DNA of 62,973 bases, counting the filler, from Choristocarpus tenellus KU-1152 (lineage: Eukaryota > Protista > Phaeophyceae), in the NCBI GenBank assembly GCA_964200185.2. It is 13 parts of 13 records of this genome, joined end to end, with 100 filler letters (N's around TTAATTAATTAA, not from the genome) between each part and the next. Parts side by side here need not be neighbours in the genome. Positions count along the whole stretch, not along the records: positions 24,495 to 33,551 come from CAXNAD020004037.1; 12 more parts are not named here. One strand, written 5' to 3'. Below, one piece after another: positions 20,140-62,855 of this stretch. Position 1 is the stretch's first letter. Every line of letters begins with the position of its first letter. The notes under the pieces were generated by a model, which saw only the letters and a program-made list of their open reading frames with translations, ran no database searches and had not been told where the DNA came from. The position numbers and the translations under genes were made by a program.

Positions 20140-23100
20140 TTAAGCAGAGGAAAAAGAGGAAAAACACGTGGAGAAGTCATCCAAACCCTCCTTCTCCTGG
20201 TCCCTCCTGCTCTGCCCTGGCAAAGCCCTAAACCACCGTTTCTTTGTGATGGTGTTTGCTATAGGCTTACTGTTACTCTTTGAGGGTGAGGATCTCCCCC
20301 CCACAGAACTCACATCTACATCATGGGAAGGAATGAGCCCTTGCACATCCTGAGACCCTTCAATCACAGGCTCCCCTTTCGACTTGTCAACAGCAGCACT
20401 GGCCTTTCGACTATCAAACTGCTTCTCGTCAGTGATGGCGAATGTCGAAGCCGGTTTAAAGTCACCATCTTCGAAGAAAATCTCAGCAAGACTGCTGTAA
20501 GAGGGGGGGGGCGACATTGGTTTGTCTTGCCCATTCGGCCATTGACTTTCCATGGATCCCTGTTGCCCCCTTTGTCCTGGATCTTGCTGTGTACGTTGTT
20601 GCACTAAGGGATCACGCTCCTTACCCTGGTAAGGTTCAGAGAGGTCTTTCTGTTGCAGTACATCCCGTGGTAGAGCCTCACTTTCATGGTCGTGCTCATG
20701 GCATCTCACACTGTAGCTCATCAATTGTTGGTCCACCGTGTCAACCCCTGACTGTGCCCTCGACTGATGCTCTAGTGTGGGTGCCAGTGACTGACCCTGT
20801 GAACGACTGTACTGGCCATCACCATTCCTCTCGAAAACAAATGGCCGCTGATCAGAACCAAATTCTGACTCCCTCCGGTTTTCCTTCCTTGACTGAGGAA
20901 TTTGTGGCGGTAAATTTGGCACATTGACCTGTTCTTTGCGGTCAACCTCTTCCTGTGTCCCCCTGCTGCTCATGAACTGTTGACCTGGTATGTCATCCCC
21001 CATCCTAACTCCCAAGTGTCCCCTTTCACCCGGTGTTGGTAACTGCCCTGAACTAACGTAAAGCCCACAATCACGTCGCCCAGTCCTTGGCGCACATTGA
21101 TCAACATCAAAGCCTGAACCCATCTGTTGATTTCTCCCCTCAAACGGGTCTTGCAAGTACTCTTGCTGTTTGCTGTGCTTCTCCTGCCTCCTGCTCGTAG
21201 GATGTTGTACATCCATCGTATTGACCGCCCGCCCTCTTTGTCTTGGTAGTGATCGACTTCGGAAATGGTGCTGCTCAGTACCATTCTCCTGAGAAATCGG
21301 TCGCTGATCTCCACTAAAATCTTGATGGTCCATACCTCGTGGATTCTGCCCATTGAATGGTCTACTGTGCTGGGCATCAGAGAATGGATCCAGGGGGGTA
21401 TACATTCTGGACGAGTGTGGTCTACCACACTCTATCCTTTCTTTTGCCCCTCCCCCCACTGTCTCAGTCTGTCCCCTTGACCACTCTCTTTGCCTTGGTA
21501 TTGATCTGCCTCGGACACGACCATGTCCGCCACCATAGTCCCGAGTCTGTAGTGACTGCTGGTCAACATCGAAGACTGGACGGCTTACGGGCTCCAGAGG
21601 TCCCTCAGAGGGCCCAATCTGATGGGCAGTGATGTTCGGATCAAGAGAGCCATCCCCTCTGGAGGAGTGCGGTTGACCCCAATCGGCCCTCTCCCCTCTC
21701 CACAATCCAGATTGTCTCTCAGTCTGGGTGGGCAAGCCCGTGGAATGATAGGGACGCATATCTCTCTTCCCTGATAAGTTTTCTGTGAACTGAGAATGTG
21801 CCATCTCACTTGAATGCACAGTGTTGTACTGTCCTGGTATTCCCCGATCCAATTGCTGCCCACCATTGTAGATATCATACTTATAAAAATCGGAAGACCT
21901 TCGCCTACTCACATCGATGGACTGTGAGATCAATGAGTCCTCCATATGTGGTTGCACCGGTGGATCATGGCCGCCCATCCTGCCAAAGGATACACCCTGA
22001 AGACTGGTACGATTTTGAAGTTCCTTCACACAAGGTATTGACGCTCCCCCCACCTTCACATTTCCCACAGGTCGCTGGTGAGGATGACCACCAGGCTGCC
22101 TTTGCTGGTCTTTGTGATATTGTTTGTTGACTCCCTGTGTGTCCGCAGCTGGAGGTAGGTCAACACGCTCATTCCTACCGCCGTTACTGAAGTGTGATGG
22201 GTGACTGTTATACGCCAGCCCTTGTTGACCCCTTCGAGTCTGCCCCCTCCCCTGGTTCCTTGTCCACGTCCTCATCATACTGGGGACTCGAGGTGATTTC
22301 CGCATCCTCAGTCCCCTAGCTTCACAGAAGAATTCCACAAGGAGGCGTGCTTCCTGACATGGTCAGTAAAAGGTCCATACACCAGAGCAAATGAAAACAC
22401 TTCTTTGTCGCGTGAAGCGTTTCAGATGAGTACAACAAACAGAGGAGTTATCCCTTCGCCAGTCTCAGGGTTTGTCTGTAAACAATCAGCAACATGACCC
22501 ACTGCAGATACTGTGCAGAAGAATTGCATGTATTGATCACCAAAAAATTCACGTCTGTCAAGGCTTGGGAAAAGAAACTATTTGATGCCTAAAAAGCTAT
22601 ACTACAGCAGAGTCAAGAATGGAATGTTTTAAAATATATTACAACCGCCTGGAAGCACTGAGAAACTAAAAGGGGCATTTTAAACAAGAAAAAGTATCAC
22701 AACCTCCACCAGACAAAGCATGTTGCAGAATGCAACCTGGAGTTGAGCTCACACCTGTTTAGAGGCACAGACTAAATCCAGGGAAACGTCTTCAAACACC
22801 AGGCTCAAAGAGCGTATTCGCACATCGGGAAAGTCCTGACATACGATTGGTGGCACGCAGGCAGTAGGCATATAATTGGTGGATTACTGGGGTATCACTT
22901 CTTTGTGGCATCTGAATAAAAAATAGATACAAATATTCCTGCAATACACCTTCAAATTTTTTTTTGCAGCTATGTCTGTTTATCACTAGGCCCATAATCC
23001 TCCAACACAAAAAAACAAGCTTGAAGATGGAGAGATAGATGAGGGTTCAGTACCACCACTCTAGGCACAAATGAGGATGTACGATCACCATGCACAATGT

Positions 23101-23803
23101 GTGGACTGTCTTCCTCTTAAACAAAAAAACACAGTCACTTCTTAGGACATGAAGAGCTTCTTGCTCCAAGTACTGCAAATTCAATTACTGAGAGCTATTT
23201 CCTCGTCTACAACAATATTAAAGCGCTTCCTTTCTCAAAGAGGGAACAGCTCTCAGGAAAAGGATATACACACATAAATATGTGTAGATTTGTTCCAAAT
23301 TATTAAACACCACTTCCACTTTTGTGATATTCTTGTATGCAATGTTTCACTGGGGTAACTTACCATTGGTCAAGAAACTTGATGGTCAAGGCAAATGAAC
23401 CAGTATGGTACTGCACTCAATTCTAAGCAGGGTTGTATGCACATCTATAAGGGACATAACTGGTACACTACACAGCTCCACCCCGGTGATAGGGAGTACT
23501 TGCAAGACAGAGTCAATGCACTGTGGAGGTTCCACACAATGTTGGTCTCACTCTCCTGCAGTGTAGAGTCTATCCAGAGGGCAATTCTTCTACCAGAGGC
23601 TTTCCTTGTACAGTATCCTACATTGGGTTTAGTTTCCCACAAATACTGAGCTACTCACAAGTAATGCATGCAAGCAGGTGCAAAGAATTGGACGGTTTCA
23701 ATTCAGGACCATAAAGCAAGAGCAAAATGAGCACAATAGACCGTACCTTCGTGGCCAAGAGGAGCTCCTTGGTGTAGCCAATACTTGAGTATTCACCCCC
23801 AAC
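20140..23803 (-). CDS. PH-domain protein with a ~730-aa disordered C-terminal exon (exons 23803-23747, 22835-22755, 22353-20140); 5' partial
   Basis: Phase-0 joins give VGGEYSSIGYTKELLLATK|DFPDVRIRSLSLVFEDVSLDLVCASKQ|EARLLVEFF, typical of the C-terminal half of a PLC-type PH domain. The 2.2-kb open terminal exon is rich in Q, R, G and S. Confidence 0.7.
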
Positions 23804-23934
23804 CTGCAATGTGCAACAGCAATTTGTACAAGCAAGGTCCGCACAACACAATGGACATGATAACACACATAGAGAATCGGTTGGCATTCACTACAGGGCT
23901 CTACCATCAGCTCGAAACTCACCGGCAGGAAGAG

Positions 23935-24180
23935 CAGCAACAGACAACTTATCAACAGACGACTTATCAACAGACAACTAATCAACAAACAACTTATCAA
24001 CCAACAACTTATCAACAGACAACTTATCAACAGACAACTTATCAACAAACAGCTTATCAACAGAAGACTTATCAACAGACAACTAATCAACAAACAACTT
24101 ACTAACCAACAACTTATCAACAGACAACTGATCAACAAACAACTTATCAACCAACAAAACTTATCAACAGACGACTTACA
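23935..24180. repeat. 15-bp minisatellite (caacagacaacttat), about 16 copies
   Basis: Direct reading. Confidence 0.92.
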
Positions 24181-24358
24181 AAATTCCCAAAACCAGTATC
24201 ATTTGAGGCCTTCGGTAGTCATTCTCATGACCGCTCAGCGTAAGTTGCCCATCATAGATGTGCAAATTTTGTGAGCAATCCCACACAAAGTGATTGTCAC
24301 ACTGAGCAAAATAACATATTCCACACTACAGACAATGTAACACTCAATGCTAGCACCA

Positions 24359-24394: not shown

Positions 24395-24799
24395 NNNNNN
24401 NNNNNNNNNNNNNNNNNNNNNNNNNNNNNNNNNNNNNNTTAATTAATTAANNNNNNNNNNNNNNNNNNNNNNNNNNNNNNNNNNNNNNNNNNNNCGTAGT
24501 CCCGCTCCATCCCCAATTTTGAAAATCCTCTGTTATCAGTAGGTAGCTGAATGAAGTCGTTGTCACGCTCTAAATCACATGATGGCGACCTGCGCGATCT
24601 CCTTTTGAAATCTACGTATCTGCCACCCGGAAACGACAGGTTGTGCTCATCCAAAATATTTGTTTTGCATCTTTTTTTTAGTTAGGGTTGGGATAGGAGT
24701 TGGGAATTGCATAAGCATGCATTATGAGGTTGGGCTCGGGTGAGAGCCAAATCCAACACACAACTCCTTGGTGGGGGGGGTGTATGTTGCTACTGACTC

Positions 24800-25340
24800 T
24801 AACCGTTACCTGCTTCTCCACCTACCTCTCGATATCACATGATGAGATGGATGGAAACAAGGGTTACTTGTGGAAGTTTGTGGAATAAGCTGGAAGTTTT
24901 GAGGACATCTAATCAAACCAACTGAGAGGTAGGCAGGGTTGCATTTTAAGGATTCCGAGAAAGGGTAAATGATTTTATTTTGTACAAATGCAGAGTCTTG
25001 GCTGAATTTTGGTGTCGCTTTGTGTGTGGGAAGAAAGGTGAATACCAATTCTGCTTAAACTATTGTGCGCATAGAATGCAACGAAATAGTGTATTGCGCA
25101 GGATAAGAAAGATGGCTTAGAATGCAAAGCATCCAAACCTGCCTTCCTCGCAATTGGTTTGGTTCATTGACTAAGAAGGAGGAAAGTGTTAGAAGGGGAG
25201 TGTAAACCTTGATCATCATATAATCCACAATTTTACTAAACAATAATTGCAAAAAAAGGCATGTGATCGTTTAATGTATAGTGGTGTTCGAGGATTTCAG
25301 CACTACTGATCTGGATGTTCCGGAGGGAGGATATTGACAT
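24800..25340 (+). mobile_element. Second, internally deleted copy of the putative Helitron relic
   Basis: Colinear matches to the first relic: ctgagaggtaggcagggttgcatttta (~24922 vs ~10018), ccaaacctgccttcctcgcaattgg (~25132 vs ~10262), ctgatctggatgt (~25306 vs ~11507). Confidence 0.5.
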
Positions 25341-26076
25341 CATCCAAGTAGGGAAACCCCATTATTAGACAAATACTACCACTATTACTACGACCTGTAC
25401 TGGACGAAATACTATGACGACCTTCAATGCATTTGGAGGCTCTCTTTTGTGTTCTTCCCTGTACAACAGTAACAAACGCAGTGTTGTATTATTATTATTG
25501 GAGTACAACTACAACAACAGTCCCTTTTCCTCATAATAATGTACGAGTACACAATTTGATGTAAAAATAGTCAAAAGCATACTATCATCCTGCCTTGGTT
25601 CTCGTGCATTGTTGGGTTCAGCACTCCCACCTCCTACCCCTCTTTGACCCTTTTCCTCCCTCTTCTTATCTTTCGCTGGACCCGTCCCAAAGACAATAAT
25701 AAGTTGATCTTGGTCCAATATTTTTTCTGTGGTATAGTACAGACAGGATGGTCGTATAACAATATATTGAACATTTCACATGGAATGACCCTTGGAAAAG
25801 AACGTTAACGTTGAAGAGGACTGGCTGAGTTGTAGACCTACACTTTTGCTTCAACTCCTGAGTGAGGTAGTGATGACAACACTCGACATCATTTAAGTAT
25901 AAAACATCATCACCATGTTGAGTTACTGCAAAAAATATAAATTAGAGGGTGTGATTTCTTCGTTCGGTAGTACTCTGTAGCAGCAGAGATAGATATGTAG
26001 GTGCAGTTTTCAATTGGGATATGGCAAGTATTACCTTGTTGTGACGAACAGAGAACTTTCATGTGTAGAAAACCCA

Positions 26077-28600
26077 ATGTTAACGGTTTCTGTTCCTCGC
26101 ACGAGCGAGTTGGTATTCTTCTCTAGCCTACATGGAAGGGCAAGAAGAGAACAACGAGGCATCGACAAGCGTGATTTACAAGCAGCAGTAAAGTATGGCA
26201 GACGGGAAATGACGTTTAGTGATCCACGAACTGGACGACCAAGGTGGAAGTACACATATGCCAATATTGTTTACATCACCGATGAGTCTTCCACTCGCGA
26301 GATTACCTCTTGGAAGGAACCCCTGGCAATACCTCATGCGGGGCTGACACAGGAGCAGGTCGATGAGCACGACAAAACGCGTAAGTGGCTACTACAGAAT
26401 CCGTCGTTGTGCACTTCGCACACCGTCATTGTGGTGGATCAATCCGCGTCCATGAGACGGTCTGACGTGCTCGACTTTCGTAGCCGATCTGAGGCCGTTT
26501 TTGCGACATTGTCTCTTGACTTTGTTGCCAAGCAGCGACTGGCTCGGGAAGGCATGGATACGTGCGTGGTATCCCTGGTTCGAATGGATCATGAAGGCCA
26601 TGTGCTTTTTGAGAGGGAACCTATGGGTTTGGTGCTGTATAATAAGTTCGTTGACCTCCACCACAGTTCTTTGCCGGCTTCACACGGCAATTACCTCCCT
26701 GCACTGGACGAAGCCGAACGATTACTCAAGCGCCGCTGCCACTGCTCCTGCGCACTATGCTTGCTTTTCTTATCCGATGGAAGACCAAGCGACAAACGGA
26801 TCAAGCGTAGAGAATTGGAGGCGGCGATGGCAGGTCGAGTGCAAGCTTTGGCAAGTATCTTCGGCCAGCAGCTCACAGTTGGTACTGTTGGGTTTGCTGC
26901 CAAAGATTCAGACTTTTCTATACTCAGGGCCATGGCAAAGGCCGCGAGAGAAGCGGGTGCGAAAGTCATGTTCCACCAGCCTGAGCTTTCATCCTCAGGT
27001 CTAGGAACGGCCATTGCCCAAAGCGTCACCTCCCTTACGGCTACACGGGTGATGCTCACATCACTGGCAACAAGGCATGGTGAACTCCGTGCACCACTTC
27101 GTCAAGTGGAGAGAGAGGCTGCGGCCATCCACTGGACCCATGACCGTACAATTGTAGGTGTGGACGATGGGTGGTCCTTTTATACAGTGGGTGTCATGCG
27201 CTGCGAATACTCTGATGTTAAGGCTCGGTGTGGTGGAAGCCCTTGGTTTCGTGTTGAACCCTTCTGTCCACGAGCTAATGGTATTGCCATAAAGAACAAG
27301 GCACTGGGACAGGGTGCCCAGCGATTGGTCTTCGGTATGCAGGTGATGCAATTTGAAAATCACAGAATCCCAACTGTATGATTCTAAGTACTATCATTGC
27401 ACATATTTATGTCTTGCACTGTAAGAACTATCTTTATTATGCCTTACATCAGATCTTGCCAATAGAAGTAGTGCCCACCATTAGGCTTACTAGTTTGTGT
27501 TCCTCCATGCCCTTCAATTTGAAAGTTTACTCATCTCCCTCCAAATCACACTTGTCACAATTATATGCATGCTAATAATGCTACATGTGGAAGACCTCCA
27601 AGGGGTCGTAGTTGAGTCTCATCCAATTTTTCATGCCATTGTTTGGTAGTGATGACCTACATTCCATGTTGCTTGTCCACATCAGGAAATTGAAGTGCGC
27701 AACAACATCAAGGCCTTGGTGGGACCTCGTCTCGTGGCCAAGGAAAGCTGTCATGATACATCCTGTGACAACATTGACTTCCACCAGTCCTTCGCAAAAA
27801 CACAGCTGATGGCCAGCCGGATAGCAGTCAAGTTTAATGAGAAAGTTAAAGATCAGATATCCCTCCTTGGCCCAAGCTTTCGATCAAGACATGTGGCCAA
27901 GATCACCTTCCTGCCTTGTTGGGTATACTTCTTCCGTGAGCACGGTGTAATGTGTAGGGTTCTTGTGGAGAAAATGTTGCCACCACGGGGATACACAAAG
28001 TGGAACAGCAACAATGGTTACGTCCTCCACCTTCCTGTAGCAGAGACCTCAGAGAACATGGTGCAGGGCAAAAAAATAAGCACAATCCAGGAGGGTGATG
28101 AGGATGGCACTATCTCGAGCACTTCCAGTGGTTTAAGTTACCTAAATGGCACTAGTGATGCAGGCAATAGAACCAGGCTGATGCCAGGAATATCTATCGA
28201 AGGTGCTCATGAAAAGACTATAGTTTGTGTTAGCGACATTGGGAGTGATAAAGGAAACTATATTCGAGGGGCGTCACCTCCACATCAATCCACAGGCTTC
28301 CACTTCAGTCCACAGGCAGGGGACTTCCCGCAAGCGTTTTCACACTTCTCATACGTGCATACGAAACGGAAAATGCTAGTGTGTGATCTGCAGGGTATAT
28401 TATCCAAAGTGCAACCTCCTGTGGATGGCCGCTCAGGGGTTTTCGAGCTGACAGACCCTGTTATTCACTACAAGTCCACCAAGGGTCGGCGCCAAGTGTA
28501 TGGGCATACAGATATGGGCATGAAAGGTGTGCAAGAATTCTTCAAAACTCATATGTGCAACGATGTTTGCCAGCTACTAGGTATTGCTGGTTTCAGTTAA
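26077..28600 (+). CDS. DUF4258/BECR-like putative RNase - vWA - alpha-kinase (eEF2K/MHCK family) fusion, ~726 aa; exons 26077-27342 and 27686-28600
   Basis: N-terminal SLHGRARREQRGIDKRDLQAAVKYG...RWKYTYANIVYITD...EITSW; vWA MIDAS VVDQSASM and LSDG; alpha-kinase motifs LGQGAQR, VAKES, VEKML, KWNSNNG, PQAFSHFSY, VCDLQG, LTDPVIH, YGHTDMG and the zinc site HMCNDVC. One phase-0 GT-AG intron. The start codon is uncertain. Confidence 0.88.
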
Positions 28601-29199
28601 TTATGCAGTACAAGATTTCTTAGATGGAACACTTATTTGCAATGGGCCCATGATATTTTGTTTATTATGCTTTAGGTGTCCTTTCTTGCAGTCAAGGTCA
28701 GGAAAGTTTCTTTTTTGTAAAGACCTCCAGCTTAGGTGTGTGTCAAAAGCTTGTAATGGCTTTGGAAGGCATAGTATGGGCACTCAGAAGTCATGTGTAA
28801 TTGCTGTAGTTAGGACAGGTATCTGTATAGTTAGAAGATAGTTGTGCATACAAGTTCCGAGTAGTTTTTTTACTTCAGTCAGGAAATGTGCAACATTCCT
28901 CAAGGTGAAGTTGTTTCGTGATTGGAATGGAATGGAATAGATGTAACACTACAAATTTGAAGTTTCGATCATTTTTTTGCATAATTTGTGTACCCCCAAT
29001 CCGCATCTATCTGCAGGTGAGTTGGTGTGGGCAGAGATGATCAATTTTACATCGATTGGTCTTGGGGTGTTGCTATTTGTTGTTTCTTATCTTGCGTCTG
29101 TGTAGTCAACAGTCAAGCCTGAATAGAAGCAAATGAAGCGACGTGATATACTTTTTTTGCTAGCGAAAAGACTTCCGGTCTCGTTTCAACCAATCATTG

Positions 29200-30120
29200 A
29201 ACCTCTCACAGCTCAGCATGAGGAGATATGTCCATGGCAAGTTTCCTGTGCAAAGTAACGTTTGGCAACTGCAGCTTCTTAGTATATGCAAAGAGCTCTA
29301 TACTTTTACTAGCGTCACTTACAGATTGGGTAGATGGTGTGTGTCACCCATCTCCCTCTGCGTGTCGGAGTTGTCTCTAGGGGGGAATTTTCAACTCTCA
29401 TCTACTAAAACTGAAGGTTCTCCCGGAGAGACTTTCTCATAAATGGTGGAAGACAAAGAAGTCTGCTAATTAGGTGGCTCCCAATGCCTGGGTCTGCTTC
29501 ATCAACCGCCCAGCCAGGTTTATGTATGCCTTGATCAACCAACACCTGAAGAGGTTGAGTAACACCTGCAGAAAGAAGGCAAAACTCTATAGCAAATTGA
29601 AGGAGGGTATGTACCTGGCAGGGTTGTGAGATCCCTAGTAGTTGATTCATCTCCTCAATGTGACCTTCTGAGCTGCATGTATTAATAGTGTTGTCATATT
29701 CATGTTGGCGAGGGGGTTGTTTGAGGAAGATACAGTACAGCGGCATAGTGAAAAGTACAAAAACGAAAAAAATCCCTCTGTCAGTTACTCTTGTGCCTAT
29801 GTGTCTCCTTTGTGGTTGTCCCCACCATGTGAATTTGCTCATATTAGCTCGATATGCTGCAAGTTCTCCTTGCTTCTTAAGATGCTCTTTATTTTTATGC
29901 CGAAAGCAAAGCAAGAAGCCCTTCTCGTCACATCATTTCTCGGCAATATACAGCCTTGTTCATGAAGACATTGTAACCTCTTGTCTTCGACTGTACAACC
30001 CTTGTAGAAAGTATGTACTCCGGAGTACATTGTCACACCTGGCTGGTATCATTAGTTGAAGTCAAATGTTGTGCTAATAATGATACTAAGTAGGCCCCTG
30101 CCTAATCAGCCAATGCTTAA
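29200..30120 (-). pseudogene. Possible ISL2EU/Harbinger-type DDE transposase relic
   Basis: VLVDQG...LLCLPPFMRK...QF** and NTINTCSSEGHI resemble DDE_Tnp_4 motifs (xDxG; PPF...QF; NTxK...PxG.I); multiple stops. Confidence 0.38.
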
Positions 30121-31399
30121 GACATTCCCTGGTGTCTTCACAAGACTTGACCAACCAATAAAATGAATCGAAGATTGTTCCCTAACCAAGTGAGCCTGCC
30201 TGTAGACGTAAAAACACAATTTATACAACTGAAGTGTTTTTAACTGTGCAATCTGCATTACACCTTTTTGCCCTTGTGCTGGAAGATGAGGATATTAATA
30301 CAAGCATCAATCCCAAATGCATGCACTTGCTCCCAACTTCATATCAATATTAGGGGAAATCGTTGTTTTCCGTCCTTCCTTGGCTTCACCACATATTTCC
30401 TATTATTCGTACGGTTATGTCTCAGTTCCATTTCCTGCTTTCTTGTTGTTTGTGGCGCTCATTTGGCAGTCAAGGAGGGTAGAATAGAGGGGGAAAGGTT
30501 GAGTAAAAAAATATCTCCATTCTCTTCAATAACCAGGTAGAGGGGAAGGGGGCTGATATGATGATAGTTACATATATATCGACCACTTCGCATCTAGTTG
30601 TAGCTACTGACTAATATCATATGCTTCGAAGTGTACTCTGAGAAAAAGATATATACAAAGCGCATACATATATCCTTAAATGCGAGTCCCAGCAGGTGGT
30701 AGTACGATGGTGATGTCGTAAGGGCAGGTGCCATGCAACAACAACTTCGTGCAGCACAAGGCTCTTCTTTCAAGGTCATCGCGTGCATTCTCTACCAGGC
30801 TCCGTACAACATGCTGCGATGTGATTGGACCACAACAGCATTATCGTAAAAATAATTTGTGGAACTGGCCTGTCAGATTGGTCTAGAGAAGTGGAAGTGG
30901 ACCACAACTAACTGTAACCCTTTCTGGATCACTTGAGGAGACTTTCAAGTGACCTCCCAGGCAGGTTAGCCTTAATGTGCCGTTGAGCTCTACAATTTTC
31001 ACGGAGTGGCAGAATATATTTGGGAAGTTGACTGTTTTAACGTCTAGTGCTACTTACTATTCTTTCAAATACTCTCTTCACTACCCAAAGCTAAATATGG
31101 GTTGTAAGGGATACATAGTTGTAAGGGATACATAGTTGTAAGGCACCCCATTGAAGTGTACTGTGTGAATTTCGAGTAATTTTAAACCACTTGATCCATT
31201 GCTGAAAAGAGTTGAGATTAAGACATTAAGTTTGTATGGCCATTACCATTAACTTTGTCTGTAGGAAAGATACTATATTGTTATATTATTTTGCCCTCTG
31301 ACATTTTACAGATGTGTCAGGGGGGAAACTAATGAAAACTATACACATACAATCCTGTCCATAGATATTACTAGTAATTTTAGATATGAAGCGAACATC

Positions 31400-32700
31400 A
31401 TAAAGTGGTATCAGTAGCTTCGCGGTCTGTGGCAATCTTGAGTTTTTTCACGTGCAGCCGCATCAGATATACAACAATATATATATCAAATGAAAGGGTC
31501 TGACAAGAGCTTTTGAAGGTTTGTATCCACGAATGTCCAGGCTTCGGGGAACGGGATCTATGTCCCGATTAACAATGGAAAAAACGCAAGTTTGAAGGTT
31601 ACGACTTCAAGACGGACAAAAATGAAGTGATTGGCTGAGCTCCTTGCAGAAAACTGATCCGGGGTAGGTCCCTACCCAAGTTTGGCTGGTGGGGCTGTAC
31701 TGAAAAAAATTTCAAGATTTTCGGACATCTTTTTAACGCCTTTTGCAGACTTTCTGTGAACACACACACAGGTGACCCACACAGCAATATGGACCACGAC
31801 AGTGAGAAAAGGAGATCCGACAAGGTCACTCTGCTCCCTGGATCTACCCTCGGCACCTTCTCTGTCGAGATGTGACCAAAAAACAAGTTCCGTGTGACAT
31901 TCGGTGCGATGTTAGGCGACAAGAAAGTGCGTGGACTGTGGCGCAGCAGCACGATCAAATCGCGTAATGGACCACGCGGCCACGACACTGACACTGAGAG
32001 AAGATACATTGAAAGCATTACTACACAAACGTGGTTGGATCTTCAACCACCTCGGAGCACTGCTCTGCAGTCTCTGCCGCCTCGGGAAAGCAGGAAGAGA
32101 GCAGCGAGTCTATAACCAGGTGTGGTGCAGTGACGAAGTCTGTGGGGAAGCCTGGTCACGGCTGGGCGAAGGGAGAACCAGAGTGACCGACCGAAGGAAC
32201 GTTTGGGGAGGAGAGTAGTGCGACTGCATGCCATTGCGCTCAGGAAACGCCTAAGCGAAAACCCTGGTATAGAATATCTTAGTAGTCGACAGTTGCCGCA
32301 GGCCGAAGCTGTTTTGAAGCTATGGGAGCCAGAGTGGCTTAGCAAACGAGAAAGAAGGTGTTAGGGTTGGGCTACAAGGGCTCTGAAGCCCGAAAGAAAG
32401 TAACCTATTTCCGGCGCTCAACGAGGAAATGTGATAGTAGAGACTCTAACACTGCGAATCCTGTACCTGTGTGTGAACGACGTGAAAGACCGTCAAACGG
32501 CACTCGAGATGGCAGCAGGATATGCGATGGTCAGATCGGAAACTGTGAGCAAATGGGAGAGAGAACTCCTAACTAAGGGTCACATCAAGGTTTCGGAGCA
32601 AGGGCGAGGCGAGATGCGTTTCGTTCTGGGCCTCGAAGAGGACACCCTTACCGAGGTCAAAGAGTGGATTCACGAACACACAGGAAGAAAAGGTGGGGAG
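31400..32700 (+). mobile_element. Probable DNA transposon 5' part with an IS630/Tc1-like HTH region, degenerate
   Basis: ALEMAAGYAMVRSETVSKWERELLTKGHIKVSEQGRG...LEEDTLTEVKEWI resembles the N-terminal HTH/linker of ITm transposases; upstream frames are broken by stops; no catalytic DDE seen. Confidence 0.42.
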
Positions 32701-33410
32701 GCTTTTTCCCACCTAAACTTATACTTTAATCAAGTAATAGTGTGTCTGTTGCCACTCTTGGTGACCTACAATCCCGGGTTCGAATCCCAATATGACCGGT
32801 CTTTCTTCAAAAAAAGAAAAAAATGGCGAAAAATAAAAAACGAAGCCCGTACTCTGGAGGGCATTGTGACTGGCATCACGAATATGCTTTTATTTTTTGA
32901 TCTGATGTCTACATCAAACGTTATGACGGGACAACCCCAGACGCATAAGCTACTGGTACCACTATGTGTGACAGGCGAATAACACGAGCATTTCTTCTTG
33001 TGTTCTAACAGAGTGCCAGCATTACACGCGCATAGCGCGAGCATTTCTTCTCACGTCTTAGCAAACACGAACAGTTGTGACAGACGAATAGTGCGAGCAT
33101 TGTTTCTCGCGTTCTAACAAGTGTGAACAATACACGATATTAGTAACACAGGTAGCCTTACAAACAGAATAAATGCTGATTTCGTAGAAGATACAGAGTA
33201 AGATTCGTAATGCATAAGTAACAAACATTACAGAAGAAAATGTCGAAGTTCCTAAGAAGTTGCAGAATAAAGGTTTATGATTAGAGTACGTGTAGAGCAG
33301 TTGCATAGAAGATCAAAGAAATTGGGTGGATGATGAAAACAATAAGAGGGCTTTTGGTCAAAACACCTTTACCCCCCTTAATCAGTTTTTTAAATATTGA
33401 ACTTAACATT

Positions 33411-33551
33411 GGCTTAAAGTATCTGTGAGGGGGTGGCGACTGTCCATTTGGGGTCATTTTTTTCATTTCGCAATTTTTGGGTGATTTGGTTGCATACGTC
33501 GGATGGTTACTGTAAATGCACTTTTACTGATTTTGACCCAAATGGACACCC
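33411..33551. mobile_element. MITE family B, partial (contig end)
   Basis: ggcttaaagtatctgtgagggggtggcg plus family B interior. Confidence 0.8.
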
Positions 33552-33787
33552 NNNNNNNNNNNNNNNNNNNNNNNNNNNNNNNNNNNNNNNNNNNNTTAAT
33601 TAATTAANNNNNNNNNNNNNNNNNNNNNNNNNNNNNNNNNNNNNNNNNNNNAAAGGTGGGGCTTCATCATCAGTCTAGACGTGAGAACAAAGTGGATCTT
33701 CCATGTGTGACAACTCGAATGACGAGCTGTACCAAGTCCGTGGAATTGTTCACATGAAGAACTTCCATAGTTTCATTCTTACAGAAA

Positions 33788-41099: not shown

Positions 41100-43037
41100 T
41101 CTAATCGAAGTCCCTCCTTAGCTCAAGCAACGTTTGAGAACTGAAAAGAAACCAACTAGCTATTGAACTCACTGGAGAAAGAAATCCAAACACAAAGAAA
41201 GTTATAAATTCAGAGAGAAACAAACCACTAAACATAGTCTGAATTTAGCAAAGCCCTTGCATGCCTCCAAAAAATATTTTTCTGCTAAAGGCTTGGTCAA
41301 CACATCTGCATGGTGCTACTCATCTGAGGTAACGTGAACAATCTTTATTTGTCCATTGGCTACCAAGTCCCTTAGGAAATGATGTCGCACATCTATGTGC
41401 TTAAATCATCCCATAACTCAAAGGGTTGTTATCTAAATGGATGGCTCCTCTGTGTTATCCTCATACACTACACAACACGAACCAGTCCTATCAGGTTGCA
41501 AGAACTCCAACCAACACACCTCGCAGAAACAACAACTCCTTCACACAGTCCCCCATGGCTATGTACTCTGCCTCTGCAGTCGACTGTACCATGACGCGTG
41601 TTGGTTCCAAGAACGCCAAGCAACTGCTGCTCCCCCACACATCACTGCCCCACCCGATACGGAGCGCCTGTCAAAAGTCTCATTGGCAAAATTAGCATCA
41701 TCGTAGGTCATCAAATCCAATCCTGTTCCTTTACGGTAGGTTAGGCCCAACTCTCGCGTCCCTTTGAGGTACTTGAGGATCTGGGACATGGCTCTCCAAT
41801 GTACTTGGCTCAGAGCATGCGAATGACGGGCAACAGCTCTTGCTGCATTAGTCACATCTGACCTGGTCATGTCGCTGACCCACATCAACCCTCCAACCGC
41901 CTCTCGGAAGGGACAATCCTTTGTGACATTTTTCCCCTCCCTAATTCCAAGCTTTCTGGACGGGGCTGCAGGGACGGGAGTGGTTGATTGGATGGGAAAA
42001 CGTTCACACAAGCTGTCAATGTGGTTAGCCTGGGTAATGGAGAGGGTAACACGCTTCTAATCTCTTTTGTAAGTGCAACCAGAAAACTGAGACAACAAGC
42101 CAAGGTTTTTGGTTGGGAACTCTTCATTCAGGGAAGCACAAAGATCATTGCAATCATCACCAGAAGCCAAAACCATCATATCATCTACATGGACGGCAAG
42201 CATCATCTTGACAACACCATCCTTCCCGAGTCTAAATATACACGGGTCAATCAGACACTGCTCAAAACCATTGCGCATAAGGGTGGAAACCAGCTTGGTA
42301 TTCCAAGTCCTAGAGGCTTGCTATAAACCATATAGGGATCTGTGAAGGCATACGGTCGTATAGGAGAAATCTCCACATCCCTGTTGGAGGCACATGTATA
42401 ATTCCTCATCCAAGTCAGATTGAACAAATGCCTGCTGGTCATCTAGGTGCCACAATGTCAAGTCCAACTCATATGCCATACTGGCCATCAGCCTAACTGA
42501 TGAGGGGGAAGGAGTGGCGGCAGAGGTCTCAAAATAGTCAAGATCATAAGAGTGAAATTATCTTAGAGAGTACGAGTTTTGCCCTGTTTGTCCGTTTGGG
42601 GCTTGGCTTCCGATGGGTTTTTTAAATGACATTTTCTACTCCAAAATGTTTCGGAGTAGGTAAAATGTGTACGTTATGAAAAGGTGTGTCTGGAACAAGG
42701 GTATTGGCACTTCCTGACAAATACGTTAACAAAAATTACTTCAAAATCGCCACATTGGATTGTGGCCCCCAAATGGGCGCGGCCCTACCCTCTAATATAC
42801 TTTGGCTCTAATCCTGACCAAAACCCTGAGCTACTAACCTAGCCTTAACCGCATTAAACATTCCAAAAGGACCACTGTTCCACTTGAACGCCCACTTGGA
42901 ACCAATGGCCTTACGACCTAGAGGTACATCTGCAGCACTGAAAGTAACCGTGTCCAACAAACCGTCGAACTTCTTAGACATGGCCTCTTCCCCGGCCAGT
43001 ATTCAGACTTTTGAGTCTCAGCATAAGATTGAAGGAC
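41100..43037 (-). mobile_element. Ty1/Copia retrotransposon relic (RT and RNase H), frameshifted and split by a MITE
   Basis: AMSKKFDGLLDTVTF...GRKAIGSKWAFKW; GFEQCLIDPCIF; LAVHVDDM (YVDD equivalent); FREAVGGLMW..TRSD; YDDANFANETFDRRSVSG; ADVLTKPL. Confidence 0.92.
42550..42808. mobile_element. MITE family A, full length (259 bp), inside the Copia RT
   Basis: TIRs gagtgaaattatcttagag.../...ctctaatatactttggctc; flanks taa/taa. Confidence 0.88.
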
Positions 43038-53018: not shown

Positions 53019-53329
53019 CGTCCTACCATGGTATCGCCGAGGGGTCTTTACTTGTGTCATATATCGTGGAACATCCAGTTGTGGAGACCCATGCCTCTTT
53101 GTATGCAATCTATATTGATCCTCTCCCATTGGGTAGTGGTGCGAAGCAGTGCCCATTGCATGCTGCTTTCTGAGGGAGGGACTTGTTCACTAGAGTGTAT
53201 GACAGTTGTACGGGATACGTTTGTGGTGGTGAAAGAACATCGTTTCATGGGTTTGGTAAAGATGATCGAGGCATGTAGTTGACGTTCTTTACCCTTTTCT
53301 TCACGCCTCATCTCAGTGTGGATGTGGAC

Positions 53330-55674
53330 ATGGCTGCCATAGCTGCAGCTATTCTCCGTGGTTCTACCACACCTGACCATCTCGATGGGATCCTCGAACG
53401 CGGCCCCGCAATTGCTGACCTCCACTACGTGGATCCAGTCGGGAGGTCGTTGGTACATATCGCAGCAGGTGCAGCTGATGTGAACTCCCTTCGCTGGCTC
53501 GTGGCCCACGGCGCAGATCCACGAGAGCGGTCAAGGAGTGGTGAAACCGCCCTCCATATTGCGGTAACAGAAGGTTACTTGGACGTGGTAGTTTTTCTTC
53601 TAGATGAGGTAGGCATTCGTAAGGAGGCTATCTCTCAAGAAACACTGGATGCAGCGACAAACAGCGGATACCAACACATCTTAGAAGCCATCACACATCG
53701 CTTGTCTCCCCCGTTGCATCCACCCTCCTTGGATGCCTGTACATGGGGAGTCTCAAGCATCACACCTCCGAGTGTCTCCAAGGAGCAAGTGTGCACCGAT
53801 GCTGAAACGGAGGGTGGCATTTCACATGGGAGAGACCACATCAAGTGTGCCCCAAGAGTTGTAACTGTAAGCAACTTGTGTAGGGAGGTAGCCAGTAGGA
53901 GCAGTCGCCAGCGGGAAAATATCGACGATGGTCAAGTTGGCAGCAGGGGAGGTAGCTCTGCACTCGAGCTCGACAGTCGACGAGTAACGAGGGGAGGCTT
54001 CTTCGTGTCAGGGGCCTGGTCCAAGGCTGGCATATGTTCATGCTTTCACATTCGTCACCGGAACCTCCTGGGCAAGCACGGGATTGTCTTTGACATGGGT
54101 GTGTGCCCGGGGGAGGTAAAACGTTGTGCTGAAGGGCTAGCTTCCTAACGTGTCAGATGTGCATGATGTTTTCTGGGTAGAGATGTACTATCCTTCCGCT
54201 CAAGTGCTGCCTCCATCTGGGAACCCTTGCTCACTTAAACCACCCATCTGATTTGTGCTTTATCTAAAGGTGGTGCACGCCAAGCATGTCTTCATTTCCC
54301 ATGGCCACCTGGACCACTGCGGGGCTGTTGTTATGCACGCCAGGTTACGTGCGAAAGGGGATACCCGCCCACCTGCGAAGTACTATGTGCCGAGTGGGAT
54401 CGTGAGTAGCCTTGAGAAGGTAAGAGTCGCTACCTATGCAGATGCGCACATGTGTATATTTCCATTGCTCTCTTCCACTAGCCTCGATATTAGTAGTTTT
54501 ACTTCTGATGAAGTTGTTCGCAATAATCCTGTGGTGGTGGAAATGAAACTTGTGGGTAATATGTGCAATGTAGTAGATGGGTGCCCAATTTTTGTGCATG
54601 TCAACAAGATATTGAGCACGCCTCTATGTGTCAGTTGAATTTTTTTCTCCTATGGGCAAGAAATAGGCTCAGGTAAATTCAACCCATATGACAAATGAAT
54701 AAATATATATAGTGAGTAAGTGCAATGTATTGAAACAATTCAAAGCATGGGTATGGCTGTGAAAAATGAATATTTTGAGTTTGTCTAAACATTATGGTTC
54801 TCTGTGATGGTAGAAGTGGTGTCTAGAGTGGTGCAGACTATTTTCCCTTCTGTTCTGCCCTGCAGGCAAAGCAGGCCTTCGAAGAAATGAATGGGCAGAA
54901 CATACCCATGGACATTGTGGGAGTGTCTCCAGGGAGCAGAGTGGACCTTGGGCAGGGGTGCTTTGTACGCCCCTTTACAGTTCAGCACAGGTGCAGATCT
55001 CTTGGCAGTGCCACCCGTCCACCCAAAAACCCACGTTCTTTTGGCCAAGTCCAAAGTTCTGAAATACAAGTGTTGCTTAGTGTAGATGCAATGTGAATCT
55101 GTTCGTCCCTGCAGATTCCTTCACATTTGAAGGTGCAAGGATCATGCTATGCTGAGAACACTGGGCTTATTGATGGGAAGCTGTTTCACTGATGCACTGA
55201 TAATGTCACTCTTTGTGACAGGTATAAGCAATGTTGGTTGGTAGTAGTATGTTTTTATTTCATGTCTTGGAGTTGTATGTGATGCAAGGGGTGTCATACC
55301 ATATTTCTAGACGGAAGATATATAAACCTGTATGATGGGTGTAGATGAATAGAGGAGTGACATTCATGTGCTCTCCCAATACTTTGTCCAGTCCCCTGCC
55401 ATAGTCCAATGATACCCAGCCCGCTATGAATTGTCCTGTCTCTACTCCCAACCCTATGGTATCTCAATGATTAACTGCACAAACTAGCTAAGCCAATGCC
55501 TCCTACTCCCTCCCCCCTGGCCAAAATCTCCTCTTCTCACAAATGGGCTTCTGACTACCTGTATGGGGAGAATGTCAGGGTGGAGGCTCTAGGCTTTGCC
55601 TTGCTGCGATGTAAGTCAGATGGTCTGAAAGAGGAGTACCGTGGGATACATTCCCATAAGCTTGCTGCCCTTAG
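53330..55674 (+). CDS. Ankyrin-repeat / TM-type ribonuclease Z (metallo-beta-lactamase fold) fusion; exons 53330-54115, 54270-54419, 54866-54990, 55579-55674; 3' partial
   Basis: ANK repeats GRSLVHIAAGAADVNSLRWLVAHGAD and GETALHIAVTEGYLDVVVFLL. RNase Z motifs WSKAG (EGxSxxG-like), FDMGVCP, VFISHGHLDH (HxHxDH), HRVEALGF and GLKEEYRGIHSHKLAALR (TM-type KL/flexible-arm motif). All splices are phase-consistent. Confidence 0.87.
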
Positions 55675-60687: not shown

Positions 60688-62855
60688 ATTTTGGCAGAGG
60701 TCTTGGCTGTGATGTGTGTAGCAGCCCCTACACCTGCCAAGTCCAAGGAGGGTGGAGCATCTGCCGCAGGACATGGAGAACTATTGGGAGGCATGGATGG
60801 CCTGCCCTCTGAGACATCACTCAGGGAAGGGGGGGGGAGGAGGGATATGGTTCCTATGGGGTCAGGCCACTCGACTTCAAGAGGGCGCGGTTCAGAATCT
60901 GCTTCGGCAAGGAGAAGGAACCAAAACAGTTCTGCTGGTTGGGGTTCGGGAGGAGGCAAGGACAGTTCCAGAGGTGGAGGGAGTGGCAATGGTGGTGGCC
61001 GGACGGTAGGGGGGGGGCATCGTGGTGGGATGGAGATAGTGCATATAGCAACGCAGGCGACTTTCAGTCTGTTGGACAGACTGGGGCAGTGGGCTGGGTC
61101 AAAGGGTGGGGCAGGGGAGAAGCCTTCGAGGAGAAGGGGAGAGTCGACTGCTGCGGGTGAGGGATGGCCTGAGGACTCCAGACGCCGGAAGTAAGAACTA
61201 GTATGATGTGTTCTGGTTAGGGTTAGGGTTAGGGTTAGGGATAGGGATAGGGATAGGGTTGATGGTGTTGTGTCCTTGAACTAAACCAATACACCATTGA
61301 AAGTGACGAAATGTATGGGTCTTTTTTAAAGAGTCGAATAACTTCATAGTGACCGACTTGTTGTACTTGGATGGACGGAGGTAACACATCCATGAAGAGG
61401 TGACATTTTTACTAACTGAACCATTTGTACATTAATGCTGAGTTCAAATAGTGTGCTCTAGTCCAAGTATTTCTTGAAGCGGTTGTTTGGACAAGTCACT
61501 TCTGTCTGTCTTCTACTGTTGTATATTTTGTAGGAAGGCGTATTGATTGTCTGTCTACAGGGGGTGCTTCTGATGTTGAAAAATGTCAATGCCCAACTGG
61601 GGGTGAACTACTCCCCTCATCACATCCACAAACATACACAAACATAAACACACAATTGTATGATCAAATCCTTCAAAATACTGTGTATTTCAATGTCTTG
61701 ACCTGCATTGGGGCTTGCTGCCACCGCTGCCACCACCACGACCCCAGAGCCCTCTTGGAATTTCTGGAACGGGTTCCGAGGGAAGTGCTGGTTTGTGGGG
61801 CCATGCGTGTGAGAGCATACACGAGAGCTTTGCGTTACCTTGAGGAACACATCAGGGCGGAGCATGCTAGGAGACAGTTGCAGGGCCAGGTGTGTTCAGT
61901 GCATTGTATCAGATTCAACTATTTCCTACCACTGTGTAAGAATATTCATATCGGCAGGGCATATAGTCGACCTCCAATTTGTGGCGGGCATCTGACTTTC
62001 CCTTGGAATTTTAGAATGCCACCTATTGTGTAGTTCTTTGTGTGGGGGGTGGGCAGATCGGTGTGGCGGTATGGCGGTATGACTTGTACCGATGGGAGTA
62101 TAAGCTGTACTTATCATAGTGTTGTTGGTTTCTCTCACAGTTGTACTGTGGTACAACCTCTGGGTGATGGAGGTTTTGCTTGTTCTGTGTCCCTTTCCGC
62201 CAGGTCTCTTTTGATTTTATACCCTGAAAAGTAGAGCATGGGTGTATACCCCGGAGTATGCATCAGAAGTAAAACAGGAGTGGGGTGCTTGTTGGAAGGG
62301 TTAGGGTTACGCCACACCTTGAAAAGAACCCAAACATACATCAGAAAAATTGCTGAGGTAGGTGTGAGAAAATAGAGCAAAATCGGTTATACAGCCATTG
62401 TCATTACAAAAAAAAAAAATGGTGTTTGTCTCGGAATGGATCATGCACGTTAGTTTTCTGTGTGTAGTAAACATAATTACGACTTTGAAGTGGTATTTTA
62501 GAGTTAGGGAATGATCTCGCGGTACTGGAAAAAAACAAACACAATCAATTATTTTTATTTTTATTTTTATTTTTTGGAGTTATTCTGATGTGTACGCAAT
62601 ATAGGTGGGGAGCTACTAGGCATGTAAATAAATGTATACTAGTACGTATGTAAAAAGTATGCAACTGATTTATGACCCCGCCCCTTCTCATTCTCCACCA
62701 CCTCCACCTGCTTTCCATGATCATCACCCTGTGCCTGGTCCTGGGGTGTTGGGGCGATGCAGGGAAGTTCCTGGACCCAGGGAGGAGTGTTCCGGAATGA
62801 TGGGGCTAATGGATCACTACCGGTGTTGAAACCTGCGGAGCTACACCAACTGCAG
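60688..62855 (+). CDS. ATR: Serine/threonine kinase ATR (PIKK family), internal exons 60688-61190, 61748-61889, 62763-62855
   Basis: ATQATFSLLDRLGQW and FLERVPREVLVCGAMRVRAYTRALRYLEEHI match the ATR segment at the start of the FAT region (QTVFSMLDHLTQW; FLDLIP...AYTRA...E); splices are phase-consistent (2, 0). Confidence 0.82.

Follow-up and report, generated by a model that had tools for sequence, protein, structure and literature searches.

A predicted Colicin-like nuclease fold joined to vWA and alpha-kinase domains in a protein of Choristocarpus tenellus and its eukaryotic relatives

Gene structure and genomic context

The window analysed here is a stretch of 62,973 nucleotides from the brown alga Choristocarpus tenellus KU-1152, and all positions are counted along it. 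It contains one copy of a gene for a 726-amino-acid protein that combines a small N-terminal domain, a vWA domain and an alpha-kinase (Table 1). A preliminary description of this DNA had placed the three domains in the same order at 26077–28600, and order and coordinates were both borne out. Its claim of one intact open reading frame did not hold, as an intron divides two exons and interrupts the region encoding the kinase N-lobe. The exons were derived from two long open frames (25993–27381 and 27656–28600) and splice reconstruction, and the spliced product is identical, letter for letter, to database protein P0001. The GC content is 39% in the intron vs. 52% and 48% in the exons, and two DNA runs span the intron with no visible joint. 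Among brown-algal relatives with the flanking motif, 11 read through into the kinase. In shorter brown-algal products, nearly all of them unspliced read-throughs, a Val (GT of the donor) comes next at the same site in 45 of 48, as expected from a shared intron donor.

Table 1. Features of the three-domain gene, with positions counted along the window.
Feature	Position	Strand	Details
Exon 1	26077..27342	+	codons 1–422; N-terminal domain, vWA, first strands of kinase N-lobe
Colicin-like BECR (DUF4258/Ntox49-like) domain	26101..26325	+	residues 9–83; predicted fold, from profile and structure searches
Predicted active-site codons	H19 26131–26133; R23 26143–26145; R27 26155–26157; T77 26305–26307	+	
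vWA domain	26410..27066	+	residues 112–330; D121-x-S-x-S125 and D234 kept; MIDAS Thr absent (G204-N205)
Intron	27343..27685	+	phase-0 GT..AG, 343 nt; position common to brown-algal homologs
Exon 2	27686..28600	+	codons 423–726 and stop; remaining alpha-kinase incl. K441, E517, D656, Q658, D679, D698 and zinc ligands
Disordered Ser/Thr-rich insert in kinase	28037..28288	+	residues 540–623; pLDDT <50

The window is interrupted by 12 paired runs of N (e.g., 24395–24494 and 33552–33651), each spacer of 100 bases consisting of 44 N, 12 bases and 44 N, and it looks like a series of separate contigs joined by these spacers. Genes across spacers may therefore not be true neighbours, and the safe context of the gene is 24495–33551 only. 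Within these limits, none of the ORFs tested outside the gene gave a Pfam match. Elsewhere in the window we noted an ankyrin-repeat exon (53279–54148, +), a weak match to the M-HEAT region of ATR kinase (61452–62033, +; E 1.7e-4), a 740-aa low-complexity frame rich in Gln, Gly and Arg and free of Pfam matches (20140–22362, −), and a tandem repeat of 15-base units that stays open in several frames (23698–24274). A further segment (41559–42056, −), which has no Pfam match, resembles a remnant of a copia-type reverse transcriptase/RNase H.

The N-terminal domain has a predicted Colicin-like fold

When modelled alone, the N-terminal domain gave two helices and four strands with a pLDDT of 87. The motif reported for it earlier is present (SLHGRARREQRGI...VKYG...YTYANIVYITD...EITSW); its conserved Ser corresponds to S16, whereas its Gln (Q26) proved variable. 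Near-invariant residues of the domain are H19, G20, R23, R24, R27, I29, G41, T68, D69, E75 and T77. Four of these, H19 (291/292 domains), R23 (294/296), R27 (296/297) and T77 (298/305), are each kept in >97% of domains, and 98 of 100 full-length homologs retain all of them. Across distant taxa the domain is also the most conserved part of the protein (59% vs. 44% for the vWA domain and 44–55% for the kinase).

Colicin-like BECR topology is described as being of the helix-helix-four-strand type, with DUF4258/Ntox49 placed in that group; the pre-helix and strand 4 bear the active site of the group, and most characterised members cleave tRNA (10.64898/2026.08.28.747851). Strand 4 carries an S/T site, and the signature of Ntox49 is given as 'H, [KR]' (PMC3482391). 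In the predicted models, the N-terminal domain has the pre-helix, the helix and the four-stranded meander that this definition asks for, a conserved His on the pre-helix with Arg nearby (H19, R23, R27), and a Thr on strand 4 (T77, within strand 74–80).

Structure searches led to the same superfamily. With VIA-align, 28 of the 29 top rows were colicin, CDI or toxin-antitoxin toxins, headed by 7vd7, colicin E5, CdiA-NC101 and BrnT (Z 7.1–7.5, values below 8 that may reflect a common arrangement; rmsd 2.3–2.9, 66–73 aligned), and the first unrelated row followed at Z 4.3. ParE gyrase inhibitors, which are not nucleases, were also among the top rows. Foldseek ranked colicin E5 first in the PDB with a TM of 0.73 but an E of 0.05, and no PDB match reached E ≤0.001. 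Among viral models, a phage DUF4258 protein matched with TM 0.78, rmsd 1.7 and E 6e-4, and DUF4258 clusters of the Atlas matched with TM 0.73–0.74. The preliminary description had named DUF4258, BrnT or RelE as the matches to look for; DUF4258 proteins, BrnT and colicin E5 were recovered by the structure searches. By fold, a Mimivirus protein matches the domain as well (TM 0.75).

At the sequence level, the match to Pfam DUF4258 (PF14076) scored 17.7 bits (E 0.0045), below the gathering cut-off of 25 bits, and spans profile positions 2–33 only. Among 36 family members, 21 matched DUF4258 at E ≤0.1 (best E 1.9e-4), while any other Pfam family was matched by at most 2. A DNA motif from the first half of the domain retrieved 19 viral stretches, and 13 ORFs were scanned after 6 near-duplicates had been dropped; 9 of these phage ORFs exceeded the DUF4258 cut-off and all 13 matched at E ≤0.02. 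The profile match to the retrieved ORFs was 97.3%, a figure that is partly circular since the first half was the search motif. The second half alone falls in the same register as prokaryotic DUF4258-like sequences (EITSW to IITVY), but this alignment is not significant, 6 of 60 column shuffles scoring as high. Searches by tblastn against phages and plasmids gave only E >1, the PDB sequence search with the N-domain profile gave nothing relevant, and the PF14076 search returned zero loci. In addition, two giant-virus assemblies (L003:3-2477, −; L007:592-3066, +) encode a protein of ~825 aa that combines a SAM domain with a DUF4258-like segment (HG-x2-R-x3-R) and that ranks among the best non-family scores to the eukaryotic N-domain profile.

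Colicin E5 tRNase, CdiA-CT NC101 and BrnT are the best solved structural matches (Z 7.1–7.2), with identities of 9–15%. H19, R23 and R27 share the i, i+4, i+8 spacing of colicin E5 K25, Q29 and R33, an equivalence drawn from spacing and range ends and not from residue-level superposition; the VIA-align range on colicin E5 starts at offset 14, which fits it. In colicin E5 these residues are reported to bind the scissile phosphate (PMC1669751), and His replaces K25 here. His248, on the last strand in this toxin group (PMC5737660), falls near T77 by range ends. The toxins differ further in that no secretion protein and no antitoxin or immunity gene was noted with the present family. With DUF4258/Ntox49 the domain has in common the topology, the N-terminal H-x3-R-x3-R-x-I motif and the Thr on strand 4, but this family scores below the Pfam cut-off and has extra invariant residues. 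Moreover, DUF4258/Ntox49 domains are stand-alone or C-terminal, whereas here the domain is N-terminal in a eukaryotic kinase of 650–750 aa.

Taken from models and conservation, residues 9–83 very probably adopt a Colicin-like fold with H19, R23, R27 and T77 at the active-site positions, and the domain is a well-supported candidate for a toxin-derived fold. The resemblance to DUF4258 and the BECR fold proposed in the preliminary description thus stood, while its RelE-like assignment gave way to the Colicin-like group of tRNases, which is closer.

The vWA domain and the alpha-kinase

The vWA domain matched PF13519 at E 1.7e-5 (25.8 bits vs. a cut-off of 27), and its model matched many vWA domains by VIA-align at Z 16–21. 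H115 and R137 are invariant in the family, and D121-x-S123-x-S125 with D234 was kept in all 100 full-length homologs. The canonical MIDAS is given as DxSxS...T...D (PMC11090510). In the present protein the loop that usually bears the Thr reads S202-H-G204-N205, with no Thr at 201–206, the loop being placed by the usual vWA pattern and not by superposition; of 100 full-length homologs, 99 have G204 and 82 have N205. Aligning the vWA domain to PDB sequences did not help to place the MIDAS Thr. The earlier report of a complete MIDAS was therefore overstated: the vWA fold, the DxSxS motif and D234 are present, the threonine is not.

The exon 2 product matched the alpha-kinase family PF02816 with E 3e-36, and the kinase model matched MHCK-A by VIA-align at Z 21.3. 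The full-length model (pLDDT 82.8) matched MHCK-A, TRPM7, an Entamoeba kinase and eEF2K. Alignment with MHCK-A showed R416, K441, E517, D656, Q658, D679 and D698 together with the zinc ligands H642, H711, C713 and C717, all of them near-invariant. In line with the preliminary description, everything expected of an alpha-kinase (Lys, Glu, Asp, Gln and Asp residues, N/D loop, zinc finger and fold) was thus found. Of 100 full-length homologs, 82 keep the whole catalytic and zinc set; the rest mostly have a Cys at H642 or are truncated at their ends. The disordered insert, which measures 11–141 aa in homologs, is a candidate autophosphorylation region. Just before the kinase P-loop Arg, Q415 (27319–27321) replaces a Glu found in 150 of 152 homologs, and a second DNA run gave the same base at this codon; this private change may weaken the present copy. 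A complex prediction of residues 9–84 with 95–726 (score 0.00, mark 0.34) speaks neither for nor against contact.

Distribution and phylogeny of the family

The N-domain profile matched 845 clusters at 50% identity (E ≤0.001). Among the best 150 of these, a vWA domain follows the N-terminal domain in 116. Another 26 stop within 45 residues, and the remaining 8 carry unrelated tails suggestive of intron read-through or a frameshift. Seeding with vWA motifs gave 158 relatives, ranked by whole protein, which favours full-length loci; of the best 80, 78 carry the N-terminal domain and the other two begin at a contig edge, which supports a coupling of the domains. Named sources include brown algae, Chrysoparadoxa, Epipyxis, diatoms, Heterosigma, Aphanomyces, the dinoflagellate Polarella, two Paulinella, the cryptophyte Hemiselmis, green algae and chytrids, and the order of N-terminal domain, vWA and alpha-kinase is obligate across several eukaryotic supergroups. 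Several homologs are complete transcripts, so in these relatives the N-terminal domain is transcribed together with the kinase. The database labels of the proteins are alpha-kinase or hypothetical protein; routine annotation has thus missed the nuclease-like domain.

No fusion was found in prokaryotes or viruses: two sets of pattern matches from viral contigs (8 and 107) contained no relative, and (narrow) family profiles gave no vWA or kinase match next to the motif in any of 139 loci from viruses and prokaryotes, the genome scan having covered 120 of ~690 stretches. One record labelled 'archaeon' (P0352) lies on a 2.4-kb contig and was not accepted as a prokaryotic fusion.

A tree of 27 rows of named full-length proteins, with no root or donor set, grouped the brown algae in one clade (100/100), in which the C. 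tenellus gene is basal and Ectocarpales have two paralogues. A single branch (100/99) united chytrids, oomycetes, Paulinella, Chlamydomonas UWO 241 and Chrysoparadoxa. Stramenopile monophyly was rejected (AU p 4e-22; 16 rows vs. 10) in a test that left out one row of unknown taxon, used a group named after the tree had been seen and involved four long branches. The tree fits lateral transfer or old paralogy with losses.

Selection, copy number and neighbouring genes

Selection on the gene is purifying. By simple counting, pairwise dN/dS was 0.16–0.46 and stayed <1 in all 52 pairs and in every region; over 7 disjoint pairs, the N-terminal domain (0.22) and the kinase C-lobe (0.21) were most constrained, with the linkers at 0.47–0.56. 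The survey for positive selection and copy-number expansion proposed earlier gave no positive selection at domain level and no large expansion among the named brown algae, in which each species has one to three records and the gene is inherited vertically; it is not strictly single-copy. Of the refuting outcomes listed in the preliminary description, none of those examined here turned up, as regards the fold, the conserved His and Arg, the presence of the domain in transcripts of relatives and the copy number.

The neighbours (56 ORFs from 21 loci) are eukaryotic and mixed housekeeping genes, none recurring and none a PP2C phosphatase. At L158 (4079-7377, −), L177 and L207, a rhodopsin-histidine kinase-receiver gene in pieces adjoins the homolog; L177 and its neighbours hold extra stops.

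In one metagenomic lineage (L157, L159, L160, L169, L171, L173) the family is multi-copy, tandem and mosaic, its copies diverging block by block in the vWA loop; L173 and L159 have their genes arranged head to tail. L157 and L169 have common flanks and an identical N-terminal domain, yet diverge by up to 21% in sharp blocks that cover the later vWA domain and the vWA-kinase linker, with changes concentrated in the loop after the MIDAS Asp (D234). Assembly chimeras could have shuffled these blocks, yet divergent versions must exist.

Across 80 metagenomic loci, 13 contained in-frame stops (20 in total). Comparison of close locus pairs gave 7 stops in 14,397 codons for the gene vs. 13 in 14,919 for the neighbours, misaligned stretches being included in both counts; as stops are no commoner than in neighbours, frequent pseudogenes were rejected as a sign of defence. 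L193, L199 and L201 bear the same three in-frame stops in the homolog and represent a fixed pseudogene.

Discussion

The reading that we favour, and hold tentatively at somewhat less than even chances, is that the protein is an RNase derived from a bacterial toxin, likely a tRNase, and that its kinase and vWA domains control it in cis. This is the most economical account of an obligate chain of three domains in which two catalytic sets are retained. The effector part would be a ribonuclease, predicted to be of the colicin E5 type and likely acquired from bacterial toxin systems. A trigger would reach the vWA domain and be bound at the Thr-less MIDAS metal site with its variable neighbouring loop; the alpha-kinase would then switch the nuclease on, with (auto)phosphorylation as the gate. 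The nuclease would cut tRNA, as most characterised Colicin-like members do, or another translation-linked RNA, leading to translation arrest, dormancy or death of the infected or stressed cell. That the N-terminal domain is an active RNase seems, from its modelled fold and conserved residues, reasonably probable; a defence role and the order of sensor, switch and effector are what we infer beyond this.

Among known proteins, Dictyostelium VwkA and ciliate vWA alpha-kinases likewise have a vWA domain ahead of a C-terminal alpha-kinase (PMC2827801). VwkA has been linked to myosin II and contractile vacuoles, and no nuclease-like domain is described for it in the account available, the comparison being one of descriptions only. 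The TerY-P system also pairs a vWA domain with a kinase, as a proposed metal-sensing phosphorylation switch in anti-phage defence (PMC11090510), but it uses separate genes, a conventional Ser/Thr kinase and a PP2C phosphatase, in contrast to one chain with an alpha-type kinase here. None of five proteins tested matched PADLOC or NCBIfam, and the links to TerY-P and to eEF2K are analogies only. In IRE1 and RNase L, an RNase in one chain with a regulatory nucleotide-binding domain shuts down translation. The same arrangement and effect are described for SAMD9, PrrC and RloC. All of these would be functional analogues; their folds are unrelated in every part, and any likeness would be convergent.

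Counting against an RNase is that the BECR fold also covers non-nucleases such as ParE, and this bears on the strongest alternative, which we consider unlikely: the N-terminal domain may have been domesticated into a module that does not cut but binds RNA, the ribosome or a translation factor and directs the kinase to its substrate, the kinase being the output, by analogy with accessory domains in eEF2K and myosin heavy-chain kinases. Alpha-kinases are reported to need extra domains for substrate targeting (PMC2827801), purifying selection is strong, and the invariant G20, R24, T68, D69 and E75 exceed the catalytic set and suggest a conserved binding surface. However, the four best-kept residues are the Colicin-like active-site positions, retained together in nearly all full-length homologs, and binding alone needs no His.

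We also regard as unlikely that the protein is an active kinase-regulated RNase with an ordinary role in stress or RNA processing rather than in defence, for example the production of tRNA halves in nutrient, cold or dark stress. Low copy number, vertical descent in brown algae, the lack of a selection signal and random neighbours agree with such a role; the patchy spread, a tree that conflicts with taxonomy, the tandem and mosaic copies of one lineage and the toxin ancestry of the domain argue against it. Release as a weapon against bacteria, endoparasites or competitors is highly unlikely. Ntox49/Colicin-like domains are often exported effectors in bacteria (10.64898/2026.08.28.747851; PMC3482391), and one bacterial match (L090) has the domain at the end of a 297-aa ORF, the C-terminal placement usual for toxins. 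Here, in contrast, it stands at the N-terminus of a chain with an ATP-dependent kinase, the Pfam labels of the listed homologs include no delivery domain, and only 8 residues precede it, leaving no room for a signal peptide, so the protein likely acts in its own cytosol. Finally, there is very little chance that the toxin likeness is accidental or convergent in an ordinary VwkA-like kinase with an unrelated N-terminal domain, despite the sub-threshold Pfam score, Z <8 and a second half of no significance by sequence alone, since three structure libraries converge on one superfamily, DUF4258 is far ahead of any other Pfam family among the members, and the (partly circular) profile match is high.

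The RNase under kinase and vWA control may be part of a wider picture, possible but rather doubtful as a whole: a widespread cell-autonomous immune effector in which a colicin-E5-type tRNase, captured from bacterial toxin systems, was joined in one chain with an alpha-kinase switch and a variable sensor of the vWA type, and which passed laterally among algae, oomycetes, chytrids and Rhizaria. Conflict-like traits are the scattered taxa, the rejected stramenopile monophyly, and the tandem copies with block-wise variation near the MIDAS Asp. Against the favoured reading count the sub-cut-off DUF4258 score, Z <8, purifying selection, vertical descent in brown algae and housekeeping neighbours.

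Ntox49 has already been recorded in stramenopiles and viridiplantae (PMC3482391); the available text of that paper mentions no alpha-kinase or vWA domain with it, and the architecture may stand in its supplementary files. Searches at title and abstract level found no paper describing the fusion of N-terminal domain, vWA and alpha-kinase, and the architecture is apparently real, widespread and undescribed. The function of DUF4258 is given as unknown (PMC11980606), and the present family would offer DUF4258/Ntox49 its first function test. It would also add a kinase-RNase fusion built from folds other than those of IRE1/RNase L. Little is known on how algae and other protists stop infection inside the cell, and the family provides a single-gene candidate with named mutable residues in tractable Ectocarpus, diatoms and green algae. 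If the immune reading is true, microbial eukaryotes and seaweeds would have in this protein a convergent equivalent of RNase L/IRE1 and SAMD9.
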